In this document: positions 18,167-26,183 of the stretch, piece after piece
Layout: each line of letters opens with the position of its first letter
How positions within the stretch are numbered: the first letter of the stretch is position 1
Assembly: GCA_041746135.1 (NCBI GenBank)
Contig: JBGTHQ010000002.1
Span: forward strand, 44,823-108,822
Source: Sphingomonadaceae bacterium
GTDB taxonomy: Bacteria > Pseudomonadota > Alphaproteobacteria > Sphingomonadales > Sphingomonadaceae
Direction of reading: 5' to 3'
Length of the DNA: 64,000 nucleotides
Notes under the pieces: generated by a model
The model's input: only the letters and a program-made list of their open reading frames with translations
Told to the model about the DNA's origin: nothing
Databases searched by the model: none
Program-made: the position numbers and the translations under genes

Positions 18167-18733
18167 TTAGGCGTATGTGAGACGAGTCTTCACAGTCCGC
18201 TTACCATTTCGCACTGCGGCACCAATAAGACCAAAGCCCAAGATAAGCATGGCCCAGGTTGATGGTTCAGGAACAGCCGCCGCGATGGGCGAGGAAGTTG
18301 CATTCACAAAATTGGAAGAGCCGACCGTGCCAAATGTATTCACGCGATATTGCCTGGGTGTGCCCGAACTCTGCAAGAAGAAGCGAACGTCAAGTCCAGA
18401 TGCAGTAAAAAAGCGAGTTCCGCTGCCATCAAGGAAACCGGGACCAGTCGTGAAGTAATTGCCATAAGTACCGCCTGCTCCAAAACCTGCACCCATCAGA
18501 ACTGTAATAGCGGAGCCATTTACCATGCCTGTAATAGACAAGATAGAAAATGCTGTGTTTCCTGCAACGGTTTGGGCTGTATCAGAAGTTGTAAAGATAC
18601 CACTTCCGGAAACGGGTGGACCGAAAAGTGGCGCACTGGTGGTAAAGTCAAACATGAACTCTGCCGCCGATGCAGGTGACGCAGATAAAGCTAACGCGAG
18701 CGCAGTTGCAGCGCCTGTATATAAATTTTTCAT
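18167..18733 (-). CDS. PEPxxWA-CTERM (PEP-CTERM-type) sorting-domain secreted protein
   Basis: Signal peptide, an FMFDF (FxDxF-like) N-terminus, and the C-terminal VPEPSTWAMLILGFGLIGAAVRNGKR anchor motif. Confidence 0.8.
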   Translation of the reverse strand: MKNLYTGAATALALALSASPASAAEFMFDFTTSAPLFGPPVSGSGIFTTSDTAQTVAGNTAFSILSITGMVNGSAITVLMGAGFGAGGTYGNYFTTGPGFLDGSGTRFFTASGLDVRFFLQSSGTPRQYRVNTFGTVGSSNFVNATSSPIAAAVPEPSTWAMLILGFGLIGAAVRNGKRTVKTRLTYA

Positions 18734-19533: not shown

Positions 19534-20868
19534 CTAATTCCCCGATAGAAGCACCAGAGGTATCCGCAGGACCGTACGCAAGTCTGTTGCATCATCGGTA
19601 GCCCCAACTTCGATGGACCAATTCAGACTGGCCCGGTCTGTGACCCGGTAGGTAACACCGAATAAAAGCCGTCCGATCTGCAGGTCGCGCGTTGTGGATT
19701 CGATGGATCCCATGTTGCCCGGCGACGGATCGATCAGCCGCGTACGGGTGCGCGTGCCGAATGCCCAGCTGTGGGCATAACCTAGATTCAGCGTGGTCCG
19801 CTGGTTGAACGAGATGCCGATGCCAGCACTGGCAGAAATGGCATCGCCCGGATCGACATAGTCGATAATTACGGGCGGAATTGTAGTATTAACGCTTTTC
19901 CCCAGATTGAAAGTATAGCCAAGCGTCCCGAACAGGACAACGGGATCCGTTGGCAAAATAGCTGTTATGCTGGGCGCAATACCCCAAAACCCTGCCCCCG
20001 TAGCTGCTTCTTGCGCGCGGCCAAAATCATCGCGTTCTATGGAAAACGGGTCTGTTCCTGTTGGAATTACGCCCTGCAGATTGGCAATCACGTAAGGTGA
20101 ACCGTTGCCGCCATCGTTAAGCTGATAACGCGCGGTCAATTCGATATCGCCAATCCCGTTGCCCTTGACTGAATTATCGATGGTTGCCGCAGGATCATTG
20201 GGAGTGCTTCCGGCAACGGGCGCAATAATAGAGGTGTCCGAACGATATACATACGGCATACGGATACCCAGTTCGAGACGATCGGTAAGTCCGTATCGAA
20301 GAGCAGCGGATCCCGTTATCAGATCCTGGCGACTTTCGTTTATATCAAATACGCCGACCAAAACCGCCTCTACCAATTCAATACCGCGAAACACGGCGCG
20401 ATTGCGATCGGCACGGGCATATTCAATCTGCCACTCGCTTGTCAGCTGTCCCTTGCGGGTCACCACGCTTCCCTGACTGTCGAGGACGGCAAGCTGTATC
20501 TGCGCTTCATCTTCTTCAGGGGCCTGCCCAACCCGTTCAAGTTTTGGCAGCGGTGTCTGTAACACCCCAGAAGGATCGCCTGCTGGCCCCGGGGCAGCGG
20601 CCTGTGCAGCGACGACACCCGGAGCGGGCAGAGCTGCGGATGCCTGTGCATGAGCATTTAAATCACGGCTCGCGAGACGATTTTCCAGATCAGTCAGACG
20701 CGCGTCCTGTCGGTCCAGTCGTTCTTGTTGCGCCTGTATCAGGAGAAGCGCATCCTCAAGCTGTTCTTGCGTATTTTTGGTTTGCATTTCTTGTTCCGCT
20801 AGTGCGGGAACAGACGAAATAAAAGGAACGGAAATGCCTATTGCCAGAGCAGTACGGAAAGAATTCAT
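19534..20868 (-). CDS. Outer-membrane secretion pore, FapF-like architecture (signal peptide, coiled coil, Ala/Pro linker, beta-barrel)
   Basis: MNSFRTALAIGISVPFISSVPALA, then EQLEDALLLIQAQQERLDRQDARLTDLENRL (heptad-like), then an A/P-rich linker, then ~300 aa of alternating beta-strand-like sequence. A GGGGGA RBS is present. Confidence 0.7.
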   Translation of the reverse strand: MNSFRTALAIGISVPFISSVPALAEQEMQTKNTQEQLEDALLLIQAQQERLDRQDARLTDLENRLASRDLNAHAQASAALPAPGVVAAQAAAPGPAGDPSGVLQTPLPKLERVGQAPEEDEAQIQLAVLDSQGSVVTRKGQLTSEWQIEYARADRNRAVFRGIELVEAVLVGVFDINESRQDLITGSAALRYGLTDRLELGIRMPYVYRSDTSIIAPVAGSTPNDPAATIDNSVKGNGIGDIELTARYQLNDGGNGSPYVIANLQGVIPTGTDPFSIERDDFGRAQEAATGAGFWGIAPSITAILPTDPVVLFGTLGYTFNLGKSVNTTIPPVIIDYVDPGDAISASAGIGISFNQRTTLNLGYAHSWAFGTRTRTRLIDPSPGNMGSIESTTRDLQIGRLLFGVTYRVTDRASLNWSIEVGATDDATDLRTVLRIPLVLLSGN

Positions 20869-20881
20869 CCCTATTTCCCCC

Positions 20882-21640
20882 TTATTTACGAGTCAGTAAA
20901 CCATCGATTATCAAGCTGTCAATTCGAAGTGCCCCCGATCCCAACAAGGTCGCTTCTGCATTGCGAAGATCAATATTGATGGAGGTCTGCGTATCGATTA
21001 TCCGGTCGCTCCCCGCATTGGTTATGACGGATCCGAACGCATGCCCCGCCAGATGCCGGATGCTTATGTCGCTCGCTTGGAGTTGCGCGCTGGCCAAACC
21101 TTGCTGCGAGGACTGACTGATCGTGCCGTTGTCCGTTGCAATATCATGGCCGTTTGCAGACAATTCGGCAAACGCCGAATTCTCACCCGCTTCAGGAGGC
21201 GCAAAGGTGACACTGATTGACGGTGCATTTCGCGATTGCGTGATGTGAACGCCTGAACGACTGTCAAAACTGATAATCGGTGCTTCCGACGCGTTGCTCG
21301 TCGAAGTCGATGTTGCTCCGGAAGTCGGTGCGGCGACCGGTTCACCCGGTTTAGGTGCAAATACGGAAAACTGCGGAGATCCCTGATCCAAACGAAAAAC
21401 GGTCCTGAGAACAATAGCGCCGTCGATGGCCGTTTGTGATTGCACCGTGAGGGCCACATCGACCCCGTTCGGCAGTTTGAAGCCGCCTCGGTGCGCCGAA
21501 AGCTCAATTTCCGGGAGCGGCACATATTCGTCGGCAAACACGCGCTCTTGATCGGACTGAGGAGCATCAGAATAGGTCGTTTGCACGTCATCAGCCAGAG
21601 GGGCATATTCGAGCGCTGCTGCAAGGGCCAGTAAGATCAT
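20882..21640 (-). CDS. Hypothetical secreted protein in the FapE position (252 aa)
   Basis: Its start overlaps the C39 gene stop (TGATG at 21640). Ser/Thr/Ala-rich. Assignment rests on size and position only. Confidence 0.55.
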   Translation of the reverse strand: MILLALAAALEYAPLADDVQTTYSDAPQSDQERVFADEYVPLPEIELSAHRGGFKLPNGVDVALTVQSQTAIDGAIVLRTVFRLDQGSPQFSVFAPKPGEPVAAPTSGATSTSTSNASEAPIISFDSRSGVHITQSRNAPSISVTFAPPEAGENSAFAELSANGHDIATDNGTISQSSQQGLASAQLQASDISIRHLAGHAFGSVITNAGSDRIIDTQTSINIDLRNAEATLLGSGALRIDSLIIDGLLTRK

Positions 21641-22341
21641 CAGAAATCTCCGTAAAATGGGGCAGTTAGCGAGAGAGCCTGTTGACTGACAGGCTCGGTC
21701 ATCAGCGAACCTGCTGGCGCGCGATTATACGCGCTCCATTGCGCCGCCCGATTGAATTTGTTTTTGGCAAGCTGCTGTTCGTTGGCAATCACGAAATATA
21801 TGCCGTTCCATGCGGACTCAAAGTCTTTGCGATCCATGATCGTTAATCCTGTCGACGGATCGCCCAATAGGATTTCGGCACCGCTTACACCTTTGACGAC
21901 CACAAAATGGCGATAATTCTTTATGGAAATCAGCGCTATTCCCGGAACGCCGGTTTCGGCTATTTTATCCAGAGTGACTTCATACCCGTTGGCATTGAGC
22001 CCGTGGCTGGCCAGCCAGCGTTTCATATCCAGCAAGGAGAAACCGACCTGGCGGATTTTCTGGCGATCGCCCTTTGCCCACATGCCGCGAAATGCATCAT
22101 CTTCATCGACGGCAAAATCATAATGATAGCGTAATAAAGTCGCCAGAGCGGCCGAACCGCAGCTGAAATCGAATTGCTGTCGCGTCACACCTGAAAACCG
22201 CCTGTCAACAACGCTTTTCACATTGAGCGAATAATCCCCTACCGGCATAGCGGCCGCAATGAACTGCGGTGATGTCGTCGACGCCACCGTAGGGGCGCAC
22301 CCTGTCAACAGGGTGCTGAAAAATATGTAGATCAAGCGCAT
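21640..22341 (-). CDS. C39-family cysteine peptidase lipoprotein (FapD-like)
   Basis: Lipobox LLTGC. C39 core RQQFDFSCGSAALATLLRYHY ... GIALISIKNYRHFVVVKG ... LGDPS. Confidence 0.85.
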   Translation of the reverse strand: MRLIYIFFSTLLTGCAPTVASTTSPQFIAAAMPVGDYSLNVKSVVDRRFSGVTRQQFDFSCGSAALATLLRYHYDFAVDEDDAFRGMWAKGDRQKIRQVGFSLLDMKRWLASHGLNANGYEVTLDKIAETGVPGIALISIKNYRHFVVVKGVSGAEILLGDPSTGLTIMDRKDFESAWNGIYFVIANEQQLAKNKFNRAAQWSAYNRAPAGSLMTEPVSQQALSLTAPFYGDF

Positions 22342-22775
22342 TATTGCCCGGGACTGATCGATATGTTTACGTTCATGGACGCGTTTATGGCAACATTGTT
22401 GCCCGTATTGACATTCAGTATCGAAAGACCCGATAAATTCTGGAAAGCGTTGTCGGAGACTGTAGCGTTACCCGTGACAGAATTACTCCCCACGCTGTTG
22501 CGGGAAACCCCCGCCGTTTGCGTGGCGGTGGAAGTTTGGTTCACATCCTCCCTGCCGGCAATCGCACTCAGCATTTTATCATCAATTGCGCCAGCACCGA
22601 ACAGATTATCGGCTGTATTTACGGATTGAAATATAGAGTCGTCGATCGCCAAACTGGCTAGCGTTTCGCTCGCGATTTCAGCTCCGGGTTCGTTTGCAAA
22701 AGCATTGGTCGTGATCGTGCCGAAGAATACGCCGGACAGGCACAAGGAAACTCCCGTTTTTAAAAATTTGGACAT
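22341..22775 (-). CDS. Small secreted protein with one Fap-repeat-like C-terminal module
   Basis: The start is moved to MSKFLKTG at 22775 (GGGAGAA RBS). It has a signal peptide ending AFA. The C-terminus NAFQNLSGLSILNVNTGNNVAINASMNVNISI is shared with the 468-aa protein. Confidence 0.65.
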   Translation of the reverse strand: MSKFLKTGVSLCLSGVFFGTITTNAFANEPGAEIASETLASLAIDDSIFQSVNTADNLFGAGAIDDKMLSAIAGREDVNQTSTATQTAGVSRNSVGSNSVTGNATVSDNAFQNLSGLSILNVNTGNNVAINASMNVNISISPGQ

Positions 22776-22844
22776 GCCAATTCTCCCGTCAAAAAAAAGT
22801 GCCAGCGGCGACATATAAATCGCCGCTGGCCAAAAGTGCGTTTC

Positions 22845-24251
22845 TTAGAACGATACATCGCCTGTGGAAACCGCCACGCTGACATTCGCATTTTGCGTCG
22901 CGCCTACGCCAGTATTCTGGTTGAGCGCCTGCATTCCGGCGAAATTCTGGAACGCATTGCCATCGTTGCTGATGCTGTTATCGATCGGCGCTGCAGGGCC
23001 ATCACCGCTACCATATGTGACGGTAATACCCGTAACATAGCTGGAAAGCGTTGCACTTGCGACGATCGCACTATCGCCAAAGACATTATCGGATGTAGCT
23101 GTTCCGGTATCCGCAGAATTGTCATTGTAACTATCGCTAACGGAACTGTCGTTTCCGCTATCGGCAACCCGGATCGAGTTATCGGAATTGTCCGAATTGT
23201 CCGAATTGTCGTTCCCACTGTCGGCAACATCGATAGAATTATCGTTGAAGCTGTCATTGATGGAATTGTCATTTCCACTGTCGGCAACATCGATCGAGTT
23301 GTCATTGGTGGAATTGTCATTCCCACTATCGGCTACGGCGATGGAGTTGTCATTGCCGCTGTCGTTGGTGGAATTGTCGTTTCCGCTGTCGGCAACGTCG
23401 ATAGAGTTGTCGTTCCCGCTATCATTGGTGGAATTATCGCTGCTGTCGTTGACAGAGCTACCCCCGTTGGCAGCAAAACGACCGCCATTTGCCGACGTAT
23501 TTGTGGAGTTGTCATTGCCACTATCATTGGTGGAATTGTCATTGCCACTATCGGCCACCTGTATGGAATTGTCCGAATTGTCATTGCCGCTGTCGGCGAC
23601 ATCTATCGAATTGTCGTTTTGACTGTCGGTATTTCCGCTATCCGCGACATTGGTCGAGTTGTCGTTGAAGCTGTCATTGATAGAACTATCATTCCCGCTA
23701 TCTGCAACATCGATCGAGTTGTCATTCCCGCTGTCGGCGGTGTTGGTCGAATTGTCGTTTCCGCTGTCCGCGACGTCAATCGAATTGTCCGAATTGTCAT
23801 TACCGCTATCCGCAACATCTATCGAATTATCGGAATTGTCATTACCGCTATCGGCAACATTCGTGGAATTATTCGAATTGTCGTTTCCACTGTCGGCGAC
23901 ATCGATAGAGTTGTCATTCCCGCTATCGGCAGTGTTGGTCGAACTGTCGTTCCCACTGTCCGCAACATCGATCGAATTATCCGAACTGTCGTTTCCACTG
24001 TCCGCAACGTCGATCGAATTATCCGAACTGTCGTTTCCGCTGTCGGCAACATTCGTGGAATTATTCGAATTGTCGGTATTGGTCGAAGCAGACGATCCAT
24101 TATTAGCGCCATTCTGACCGGCATTTGCAGCGCTGTTGTCCGAACCGCTGGAATCCTGCGCGGCAGCAACTCCTGGAATCGCAACGAGCAGCGCCGCTGC
24201 CGATACAGACCGAACGAGCTGATTTTTTGTCAATTTTATCATGGTAAGCAT
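22845..24251 (-). CDS. Secreted hyper-repetitive Asp/Asn/Ser protein (468 aa), presumed cargo of the Fap-like system
   Basis: Signal peptide (..AIPGVAAAQ). I count about 18 copies of xVADSGNDNS in 14-residue units. The C-terminus is NAFQNFAGMQALNQNTGVGATQNANVSVAVSTGDVSF. The start may be the second ATG at 24242. Confidence 0.8.
   Translation of the reverse strand: MLTMIKLTKNQLVRSVSAAALLVAIPGVAAAQDSSGSDNSAANAGQNGANNGSSASTNTDNSNNSTNVADSGNDSSDNSIDVADSGNDSSDNSIDVADSGNDSSTNTADSGNDNSIDVADSGNDNSNNSTNVADSGNDNSDNSIDVADSGNDNSDNSIDVADSGNDNSTNTADSGNDNSIDVADSGNDSSINDSFNDNSTNVADSGNTDSQNDNSIDVADSGNDNSDNSIQVADSGNDNSTNDSGNDNSTNTSANGGRFAANGGSSVNDSSDNSTNDSGNDNSIDVADSGNDNSTNDSGNDNSIAVADSGNDNSTNDNSIDVADSGNDNSINDSFNDNSIDVADSGNDNSDNSDNSDNSIRVADSGNDSSVSDSYNDNSADTGTATSDNVFGDSAIVASATLSSYVTGITVTYGSGDGPAAPIDNSISNDGNAFQNFAGMQALNQNTGVGATQNANVSVAVSTGDVSF
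23100..24075 (-). repeat. Coding tandem repeat, ~42-nt unit (DNSIDVADSGNDNS)
   Basis: Periodic GTCGGCAAC(A/G)TCGAT(A/C)GA(A/G)TT(A/G)TC... units. The copies differ mostly at codon third positions by eye. Confidence 0.85.
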
Positions 24252-24419
24252 CCTTTTATATTAGCCTAAGGCGCAACGGTGAAATGAAAGACTCACTGTC
24301 GTCGCGGCGCTTTGAAAATAGCGCCCTGCATTACTAGGATGATCGGAAGCAAAACCTTCCCCTCGCTTGGGAATTAACTTTGCCCTAATCCGGTAGCTTT
24401 CTCTCCCCCCATATTGGGG

Positions 24420-25556
24420 TCAGAAGGGTTTGGAATGACAAGGCCAAGTTGTGCGAACAGAGCTTTTTAAAAGCAGACATACCAATTCCGCCTGCCTGTT
24501 TGTATCGGTTTTCAAAAATACTTGTTTGAGATAAGAGCGAGCAGTCTGTATTTTGACACGCAATTCTTTTGCAGCATCCTGCAATGTACAGCCATTAGCC
24601 AGCCGACAAGCCAGTCGCGACTCCACTGGAGACAAGGCGTAAAGTTCGCACACGGGCATAATAAGAAAATCGATATCCGATTGCGGATCTATAAGGTTGA
24701 TGACGGCAACCGTGCCTGCATTTTTTATGGTCGGAAAATTGCTGCCAGAAACCGTCGCGATAAGAGGTCGCTTTAGTTTGCGGTTAATTGTTACTACGGG
24801 ACTGCAATGATTGCCTTCGAACTGGGGCCGTTTGCCAATGGCAAAAACATGCTCGATTGCAGCCTGTATGCGTAGGGTTTCTGAAAAATTGGCGCAAGCG
24901 AGCCGGTTGTTACTAAGCCAAAGTCCATTGTCGGCAATGATTAATCTTTCCGCCGCATCATTCACAAGGATAATATGGCCATCGGCATCAACCAAAATAG
25001 TTCCAGTTTCGCTGTTATTGATAGCCGCCATAAAGGCTTCCTGGCGAACATGTTCGTTCATTTGAAGATCAAGAATTTTGAAAAACGCATCGGCCGTAGG
25101 CATGAGATGCACCGCCGCGGTATTCGCTCGTATACGATCATGCGACTGAATCCGCCAGAATAAAGCCGTAATTGTAACCAGGGTTTTGTGTGCGAAGAAT
25201 TTGATCGTCAGCAATTCTCGCGAAGTGCCTGTTTGTTCAGGGGCAACCCAGAACAGTTTCGTTTCGATGTTTTCAGCGGAAAGCGAAGCCTGCGCTGCAT
25301 CAAACATTTCCTGTTCAATGATGGGATTTTCAAAACAGCTTTTTGGTTCGTTTATAAATCGCGTTTTACGGTCAGGATAATGCAGCGCGATCAAGATTGC
25401 ATCCGCAGCCAGTTCTTTTAGTATTTCCTTGGCAAAATCGCCAAATGGTTCATGTATTTCATCCGCAAAGTCAAACTCTTCAAACTCCAAAGAAGAATGC
25501 ACAAGCATTTCTGGAGAAAAAGAATTCGCAATTGATTGAACCATTTCGACAGACAT
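24420..25556 (-). CDS. LuxR-family transcriptional regulator with PAS-like sensor domain
   Basis: C-terminal LSPVESRLACRLANGCTLQDAAKELRVKIQTARSYLKQVFLKTDTNRQAELV (HTH_LuxR). Central ETGTILVDADGHIILVNDAAERLI (PAS-like). The start is moved to the ATG at 25556 (GGAGAGG RBS). Confidence 0.85.
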   Translation of the reverse strand: MSVEMVQSIANSFSPEMLVHSSLEFEEFDFADEIHEPFGDFAKEILKELAADAILIALHYPDRKTRFINEPKSCFENPIIEQEMFDAAQASLSAENIETKLFWVAPEQTGTSRELLTIKFFAHKTLVTITALFWRIQSHDRIRANTAAVHLMPTADAFFKILDLQMNEHVRQEAFMAAINNSETGTILVDADGHIILVNDAAERLIIADNGLWLSNNRLACANFSETLRIQAAIEHVFAIGKRPQFEGNHCSPVVTINRKLKRPLIATVSGSNFPTIKNAGTVAVINLIDPQSDIDFLIMPVCELYALSPVESRLACRLANGCTLQDAAKELRVKIQTARSYLKQVFLKTDTNRQAELVCLLLKSSVRTTWPCHSKPF

Positions 25557-26183
25557 AAACCCTCTCCACGCATGCAAAGCCCCTCTATTGAGGGTACATT
25601 GCTGTTAAATTTACATGCGACCCAGCAAACTAAAACGTTGCTGAATTTTCGAATAGGGAAATTCCGCTGTCGTTTTGCAGGCTGGCAACCAAATATGCGA
25701 CTCGATAACCCACTTTATGTTTTTTTTGTTCTCCGGTAAAGCGAAAATACCTCGAAATCCTACTATTTGCAGCTAGTTCATATAGATTAGCAACATAGAT
25801 TGCATTTCACATTTTTTCCTTTTCGCATTATTCATTTAATATTCATTGTATGAAATCGTCACCAGGCCAATATATTTTTCAAGGGCGATATCGTGATTGC
25901 GTGCCAGCACGAAGAAGGCGCTGTTAGGGACGATCCTTGGTGGCTATTCGTGAGACTATCAGCCAACGCCTGAATGCGCTCTGTTTCCGTTTCTGAATAC
26001 ATCCGCCCTCAGGGTAAATTAAAGGATTTGCGCTCTAAAGAGTGATGCAAATTTGCCTATCCTTGCTCACAAACACTTAAATGAGGTGGTAAAAGGGGCG
26101 AGAACGCTCTTGGTGCGCTTGCTAGCTGATGCGGGAAATTCATAAAGTAAGGCTTTTTTGCTTTAGTACCTACTACCTCATCA

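Follow-up and report, generated by a model that had tools for sequence, protein, structure and literature searches.

The 64,000-nucleotide stretch of Sphingomonadaceae contig JBGTHQ010000002.1 analysed here (the window) carries on its minus strand a gene (22845..24251) for a 468-amino acid (aa) protein composed largely of Asp/Asn/Ser repeats. The open reading frame (ORF) had been singled out by a model from the letters alone (the original prediction), and both its length and its position stand. Read in the direction of transcription, the minus strand encodes a LuxR-family regulator with a PAS-like region, the repeat protein (large subunit), a terminator-like hairpin, a small subunit, a C39 peptidase, a protein in the position of FapE (FapE-position protein) and a FapF-like barrel. 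In more than 15 genomes, an orthologue of the large subunit gene holds the corresponding place in the operon. The system appears to be an undescribed relative of the Pseudomonas Fap amyloid-secretion system: a Fap-type secretion operon is known, and what is new is its substrate family. This context, in which the repeat gene is the first structural gene of a FapD/FapF-type operon and shares a C-terminal domain with its neighbour, was absent from the original prediction and explains more than the repeat does alone.

The second ATG of the ORF, at 24242 (MIKLTKNQ..., 465 aa), is likely the true start because of the position of an AAGGA sequence. A predicted Sec signal peptide (aa 1-31, ...AIPGVAAA|QD; 24159..24251, minus strand) was assigned by inspection, and orthologues have N-termini that align with it; the call of a secreted protein is borne out as a prediction. 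Ser (93), Asn (90) and Asp (80) account for 56% of the 468 residues. Cys, reported missing from the repeat part in the original prediction, is absent throughout, as are Trp, His and Glu, and the C-terminus reads ...VSTGDVSF, as first described. The mature protein has a net charge of -78, an isoelectric point (pI) of 4.05 and a grand average of hydropathy (GRAVY) of -1.01. By our own calculation, a mean net charge of ~0.18 and a normalised hydropathy of ~0.39 put it on the natively unfolded side of the Uversky boundary.

Two short-read contigs from different SRA runs, L005 and L006, were used as an independent check of the assembly. Both match the window at 100% identity as far as coordinate 23880, where they end, within a 192-nucleotide (nt) duplication. 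Independent support therefore covers the C-terminal 345 codons and not the copy number in the first 124 codons. Exact look-ups of the 468-aa and 465-aa products in the gene collection gave no record. An antisense ORF of 477 aa (22836-24269, plus strand) spans the entire repeat gene without a stop, and on contig L005 this is the strand that one gene caller annotated. It was rejected as a gene and is most likely a by-product of the codon composition of the repeat, because its own composition is hydrophobic, Arg-rich nonsense. The G+C content of the window is 52.6%, below expectation for Sphingomonas. The repeat gene itself is real.

The repeat region (aa 60-375; 23127..24074, minus strand; net charge about -68) contains 18 [VT]ADSGN units (16 VADSGN and 2 TADSGN), the number originally estimated, together with 21 DSGN and 5 variants of the NDSGND/NDSFND type. 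The repeat had been described as a 14-mer built on xVADSGNDNS. A repeat it is, but not a strict 14-mer: successive units lie 14, 14, 11, 11, 14, 14, 14, 11, 11, 20, 16, 14, 54, 20, 16, 20 and 20 aa apart, that is, at spacings of 11, 14, 16 or 20 aa with a single gap of 54, and Tandem Repeats Finder returned overlapping periods of 33, 42, 48, 60, 108 and 192 nt. When the 18 units were aligned over 12 codons, pairwise differences per site amounted to 0.09 at the first codon position, 0.12 at the second and 0.51 at the third, and 790 synonymous versus 289 non-synonymous codon-pair differences were counted. The largest duplication, a 64-aa block (aa 64-127 versus 128-191), shows the same pattern, with 33 of 192 nt differing, 28 of them at third positions, and with 27 synonymous and 5 non-synonymous codons. 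The copies diverge mostly at third positions; the repeats are therefore old and selected at the peptide level, as had been suspected by eye. We conclude that the repeat region is under purifying selection.

A second conserved motif type of the large-subunit family, the ANGGRFAANGGSS element, lies within the repeat region (aa 254-266; 23454..23492, minus strand). It had been taken for a non-repeat insert; the insert is present, but SAxxAANNGG(S/T) occurs several times in orthologues, and ANGGRFAANGGSS-like elements recur as SAGRFAANG, GTSAANNGGTA or GNLAANNGST in P0001, L007, L009, L013 and L014. Neither Pfam (E<=0.1) nor NCBIfam, RTX and curlin models included, matched the repeat protein, a PDB sequence search with the large subunit returned nothing, and a literature search found no mention of the motif strings, in keeping with the earlier failure to recognise any named repeat. 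By eye, the repeat protein holds no convincing conserved D/E-x-N-x-S/T sequon, and the idea of N-glycosylation was dropped.

The C-terminal part of the large subunit (aa 387-468; 22848..23093, minus strand) is a conserved domain in the alignment (DNVFG..AIVAS.TLSSYVTG..NAFQNFAGMQALNQNTG..QNANVSVAVSTGDVSF). Its counterpart is the small subunit encoded immediately downstream, a protein of 144 aa from MSKFLK... (22341..22775, minus strand) with a highly conserved C-terminal core, IAGRED...NAFQNLSGLSILNVNTGNNVAINA.MNVNISI. The ATG at 22775 is preceded by a GGGAGA Shine-Dalgarno sequence and is the likely start; the 157-aa ORF call for this gene begins too early, because the hairpin lies at 22791-22830. 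Homologues of the small subunit number 480 (roughly 57-81% identity among the matches listed), and P0020 is identical to it. The two subunits have ~85 C-terminal residues in common, with the pattern DNxFG...NAFQNxxGxxxLNxNTG...N(V)xV / NxNVS, and paired large and small C-terminal motifs were found in 18 loci. The variants match by lineage: AFQN is paired with AFQN in Sphingomonadales and AFAG with AFAG in Brevundimonas. Judged by these alignments, the C-terminal domain of the large subunit and the small subunit are paralogous. The sole family hit of the small subunit, a sub-threshold match to IglC, was dismissed, and a profile of the C-terminal domain yielded only chance-level matches to pilus proteins in the PDB (E about 0.6).

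The two subunit genes are separated by an intrinsic-terminator-like hairpin of 12 bp, 9 of them GC, followed by T8 (22791..22830, minus strand). In 15 of 15 other loci (L001, L007-L014, L016, L019-L021, L023 and L024), a GC-rich hairpin, often with a T-run, likewise comes directly after the large gene's stop codon. Terminator hairpins are common behind major fimbrial subunit genes, and the conservation seen here suggests a terminator or attenuator that sets subunit stoichiometry. Together with the lineage-matched AFQN and AFAG variants, the conserved terminator suggests excess production of the large subunit and its co-assembly with the small subunit by way of the domain common to both.

Downstream of the small subunit gene lies the gene of a FapD-like C39 double-glycine peptidase (21640..22341, minus strand; Pfam Peptidase_C39, 3e-19), whose LTGC lipobox predicts a periplasmic location. 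Its Cys, His and Asp align with those of active double-glycine peptidases (PDB 6mpz and 3k8u). The NCBIfam FapD model matched it at 2.8e-44, the score of 151 bits lying below the cutoff of 330. The last gene, coding for a FapF-like outer-membrane transporter of 444 aa (19534..20868, minus strand), specifies a signal peptide, a heptad-rich, coiled-coil-like N-terminal segment, an Ala/Pro-rich linker and a beta-barrel. Residues 125-438 matched FapF in the PDB (5o67, E=7e-28); the NCBIfam FapF model gave 4.6e-35 and 121 bits versus a cutoff of 700, as expected of a homologue and not of an equivalog. The homology of the barrel to FapF and that of the C39 peptidase are, like the conservation of the operon, established by these comparisons at the level of sequence.

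Between the two genes lies that of the FapE-position protein (252 aa; 20882..21640, minus strand). No Pfam or NCBIfam family matched it, and its homologues are all unnamed sphingomonad proteins. It carries a sequence resembling a double-glycine leader, ...EIELSAHRGG|F, with the two glycines at aa 52-53 (about 21482-21487). The motif [VL]PDxELAxxRGG|F, in its extended form [VL]PDxELAxxRGG|F(x)LPNG, was found in 31 of 32 homologues (P0198-P0229), and the Brevundimonas protein (L001 9008-9670) has it as LSDEELSGLRGG|F. It stands ~30-50 residues into the protein, behind a short hydrophobic stretch that has no basic residues, and agrees with the classical double-glycine consensus of bacteriocin leaders at positions -12, -8, -7, -2 and -1. 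RGG|F is a candidate cleavage site for the adjacent C39 peptidase. In Pseudomonas, the target of FapD has been described as unclear, and FapE loses its N-terminus (PMC5557850); ELAxxRGG|F of the FapE-position protein offers a concrete site at which a periplasmic C39 peptidase can be probed. In the small subunit, a variable N-terminal stretch of ~45 residues leads to a conserved LxxIAG-RED junction (DDKMLSAIAG|RED; 22344-22694, minus strand), and its LSAIAG resembles LSAHRGG of the FapE-position protein. More speculatively, the C39 peptidase may cut the small subunit as well.

The same set of genes in the same order was observed in Brevundimonas, Sphingomonas sp. MMS24-JH45, S. aliaeris, Novosphingobium and one metagenome contig. 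A scan with the small subunit, using one genome per species, produced 15 loci from Sphingomonas, Croceicoccus, Altererythrobacter, Erythrobacter and Hephaestia; for Croceicoccus, Erythrobacter and Hephaestia, the comparison covers the pair of large and small subunits. In 14 of the 15 loci (truncated L022 was excluded), the upstream gene codes for a signal peptide, a low-complexity region rich in D/N/S/T/G and the C-terminal domain, in proteins of 172 to 621 aa. Units of the VADSGNDNS type occur in 8 of the scanned loci; other loci have DNSDNS, DSFDDNSD or SANNGGTS. A comparison of copy number among relatives, proposed with the original prediction, found DS[GFLY][ND]DNS kept across genera at roughly 3 to 28 copies per protein, with spacers that vary from one orthologue to the next.

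Database entries for the large subunit are few. Of 1.84 billion representatives searched exhaustively with phmmer, only 61 matched at E<=0.001, and several of these (e.g., P0150 and P0174) were set aside as unrelated low-complexity proteins. Many of the matches are truncated, a pattern that fits assemblies breaking in the repeat. The orthologue P0002 of Sphingomonas sp. MMS24-JH45 (L004 7001-7849) reads through stretches such as RRRSRTPATTIRTARPTRRSRTRV that resemble the D/N/S repeat translated in another frame, and the genes beside it are broken up too. Frameshift errors of that assembly are thus more likely here than real sequence.

Tandem DS[GF]NDNSDNS repeats were also observed in P0018 (L025 6001-7257), whose gene adjoins type I secretion ABC and HlyD-type genes, and in the actinobacterial IniB-family proteins P0013 (L026 4704-5756) and P0017, which have a PF27122 N-terminal domain; the P0013 gene adjoins two dynamin-like genes of the iniA/iniC type. 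Unlike the large subunit, P0018 and the IniB-family proteins are without the C-terminal AFQNFAG...NTG domain. The DSxNDNS motif is, by these matches, reused in unrelated secretion or envelope contexts, whether by common descent or by convergence. Its conservation across genera and this reuse suggest that the repeat has a specific structural or binding role. Ca2+ or other cation binding is plausible from its composition, and multivalent cation binding is our most economical guess.

The unfolded FapB, FapC and FapE of Pseudomonas are exported through FapF, and secretion depends on the catalytic Cys of FapD (PMC5557850). Fap operons were reported only from Beta-, Gamma- and Deltaproteobacteria (PMC3792158). 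Homologues of fapD and fapF within 5 kb of each other were later recorded in five additional phyla, their substrates not being described (PMC6173800; Rouse et al. 2018). The locus studied here is a fapD/fapF pairing of the latter kind, but with a defined substrate family consisting of the large and small subunits and the FapE-position protein. It resembles Fap in its FapF-type barrel with an N-terminal coiled-coil-like segment and linker, in a periplasmic C39 peptidase with intact catalytic residues, in the gene order of subunits, peptidase, E-position protein and barrel, in having two paralogous (here predicted) secreted subunits, one large and variable and one small, and in the Asn/Gln/Gly-rich hairpin-like motifs of the subunits. 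It differs from Fap in the single C-terminal domain per subunit, where FapB and FapC have three imperfect repeats, in the hyper-acidic DSxNDNS region of the large subunit, in lacking FapA, in the succession of large and then small subunit with a terminator between them, in the near-canonical double-glycine motif of its E-position protein, in the dedicated LuxR regulator that adjoins the operon and in its alphaproteobacterial host.

Based on the gene context, the 468-aa protein is probably, though not assuredly, the large and, presumably, most abundantly made exported subunit of a Fap-like fibre or matrix system of Sphingomonadales and some other Alphaproteobacteria. Several observations weigh against this assignment. 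We looked for the Fap subunit repeat (three imperfect copies of GNxGxNxAAGxxNQQxN) and detected no homology of either subunit to the FapB/C repeats; NCBIfam and Pfam gave no match, and the profile of the C-terminal domain missed the FapC chains 9nqd and 9u4u, which were present in the PDB set searched. Alignment of this domain with FapC R1-R3 by hhalign gave a probability of 0.7%, a weak negative, with three sequences on the FapC side. By eye, the subunit hairpin motif SG(L/N)xxxN(V)xxGxxN resembles the Fap repeat SGNxGVNxAAGxxNQQ, which we treat as a lead only. The scores of the peptidase and the barrel, far below the equivalog cutoffs, point to a paralogous system, for which what is known of Fap may not hold. 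The FapF-like gene of Brevundimonas (L001 9708-11057) lies on the opposite strand from those of the subunits, the C39 peptidase and the E-position protein, and the regulator that comes after it is of the Crp family and not of the LuxR type; the organisation and regulation of the operon thus differ between orders. Finally, it is the specific motif of the repeat, and not just its composition, that is strictly conserved, which would be unusual in a mere disordered spacer. Since the FapD and FapF matches are sub-cutoff and the subunits show no homology, the system was filed as Fap-like (FapD/FapF-type) and not as Fap.

Taking every step from Fap biology, we infer the following export route, cleavage sites, assembly and function. 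Sec would take the large subunit to the periplasm, where it would stay unfolded. The C39 lipoprotein peptidase would cut the FapE-position protein at RGG|F and perhaps the small subunit after IAG, and the FapF-like barrel would export the substrates. Once exported, the large subunit would co-assemble with the paralogous small subunit by its ~85-aa C-terminal domain, which would mediate export as well as assembly, in the manner of CsgA/CsgB or FapC/FapB. The N-terminal DSxNDNS region of 320 aa would then be displayed as a disordered, strongly hydrated polyanion brush with about -70 charges, which would probably bind metal cations such as Ca2+ or Mg2+, either on the cell surface or within the matrix.

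A different role for the repeat, unlikely in our view but the most serious competitor, is that it is itself structural: upon export and Ca2+ binding, or upon polymerisation, DSxNDNS units would stack into a beta-solenoid or cross-beta fibre, with Val/Ile buried and Asp/Asn/Ser ladders coordinating cations. Such a fold would account for the conservation, across genera and under purifying selection, of a motif that goes beyond composition, and for the one hydrophobic residue in each unit. The repeat was also compared with the 12-residue Ca2+-binding loop of the EF-hand/DxDxDG type, D-x-[DNS]-x-[DNS]-G-x-[ILV]-[DNSTE]-x-x-[DE]. Four units (ND[NS]SDNSIDVAD; NDxSDNSIDVAD) agree with a relaxed EF-hand/dockerin form of it that has Asn instead of Asp at position 1; the strict EF-hand pattern fails at positions 1 and 13, and no Pfam Ca2+-binding repeat family matches the large subunit. 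The substrates of type I secretion typically fold on binding Ca2+, as is established for RTX proteins, and one DSGNDNSDNS-repeat protein, P0018, adjoins type I secretion genes. Amyloid subunits, moreover, can be disordered as monomers, as is reported for FapC (PMC12459412).

Structure prediction and repeat spacing argue the other way. For the mature large subunit, AlphaFold2 gave a mean pLDDT of 42.6 and a pTM of 0.21, and DSSP assigned no strands and no secondary structure; regular solenoids are usually modelled, but the alignment held only 17 sequences, so that the absence of a solenoid is not a strong negative. The spacing of 11, 14, 16 or 20 aa is irregular, the ~70 uncompensated negative charges oppose in-register stacking, and both the number of repeats (about 3 to 28) and the spacers vary among orthologues. 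The regular beta-solenoid of the original prediction is therefore not supported by the low pLDDT and irregular spacing, and the Uversky calculation also speaks against it. For the small subunit (76 sequences), AlphaFold2 gave a pLDDT of 58.8 and one short helix just N-terminal of the conserved IAG|RED. Low-confidence monomer models of this kind neither support nor exclude an intermolecular cross-beta assembly of either subunit. The predicted disorder fits an unfolded export substrate whose repeat region would stay a hydrated polyanion.

It is considerably less probable that the large subunit is an adhesin or S-layer-like surface protein that leaves the cell by another route, its FapD- and FapF-like neighbours being incidental. 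Export through the FapF-like barrel is a prediction, a terminator parts the repeat gene from the genes downstream, and DSxNDNS repeats occur in proteins tied to other secretion contexts. Yet adjacency and order are conserved from Sphingomonadales to Brevundimonas and on metagenome contigs too, in each locus the C-terminal domain has a paralogue in the operon's own small protein, and the large subunit shows no autotransporter, LPXTG or type I secretion features and no Pfam or NCBIfam match. That misassembly produced the ORF, or that it is a low-complexity frame without function, as the breaks of short-read contigs at 23880, the missing database record and the antisense ORF might suggest, is scarcely credible given third-position divergence of the copies, two independent contigs identical over 345 codons, orthologues of the same architecture in many genomes, and a Shine-Dalgarno sequence, signal peptide and terminator all in place.

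Fil fimbriae of Acinetobacter sp. Tol 5 (PMC3498257) are a second fibre system of comparable make-up. Like the Fil system, the locus combines a C39 peptidase (FilB model, 4e-31) with a FapF-related barrel (FilC model, 8.4e-15). Unlike in Fil proper, the NCBIfam scores are far below the cutoffs (108 bits versus 475 for FilB, and 55 versus 630 for FilC). FilA is not known to carry a D/N/S repeat. The locus might, after Fap and Fil, represent a third, undescribed class of FapD/FapF-dependent extracellular fibre, in which the C39 peptidase acts on the near-canonical double-glycine leader of the FapE-position protein and the major subunit displays a new and widespread cation-binding DS[GFLY][ND]DNS module. 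We offer this broader proposal tentatively and consider it doubtful.

Other named systems are more distant. The GGxGxDxUx repeats of RTX proteins were not matched (Pfam, E<=0.1), and, unlike type I substrates, the large subunit has an N-terminal signal peptide, while its operon is without type I secretion genes. Curli models in Pfam matched neither subunit, and the operon encodes a FapF-type barrel and not a CsgG/E/F apparatus. The Ser-Asp regions of staphylococcal Sdr/Clf proteins and the DSS repeats of dentin phosphophoryn are long, acidic, low-complexity, and extended or disordered, and phosphophoryn binds Ca2+. The large subunit, too, has a long acidic, Ser/Asp-rich low-complexity region; it differs from these proteins in its repeat unit, which is Asn-rich with a conserved motif of 7-8 residues, in lacking homology and an LPXTG anchor, and in its Gram-negative, Fap-type context. 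Our literature search found nothing specific on a sphingomonad Fap-like system.

Fap-type secretion has been characterised only in Pseudomonas and relatives, and the locus defines a substrate family for one fapD/fapF pair in Alphaproteobacteria, which are common in soil, in water, on plant surfaces and in biofilms. The DSxNDNS repeat is conserved and selected, yet is recognised by neither Pfam nor NCBIfam. Binding of Ca2+ or other metals, if it occurs, would make the repeat of interest for the cohesion of biofilms, tolerance of desiccation, the sequestration of metals or the nucleation of minerals.

Two further genes flank those described above. Directly upstream of the repeat gene, the LuxR-family regulator with a PAS-like region (24420..25577, minus strand) has weak Pfam PAS matches and an NCBIfam match to the LuxR-type BagY/FevT model; S. 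aliaeris (37% identity, E=7e-72) and Novosphingobium (36%, E=4e-45) have orthologues of it in the corresponding place. On the other side, a 188-aa PEPxxWA-CTERM / PEP-CTERM sorting-domain protein, predicted to be surface-sorted and not evidently part of the operon in other genomes, is encoded ~0.8 kb downstream of the FapF-like gene (18167-18733, minus strand) and is also present on contig L005.

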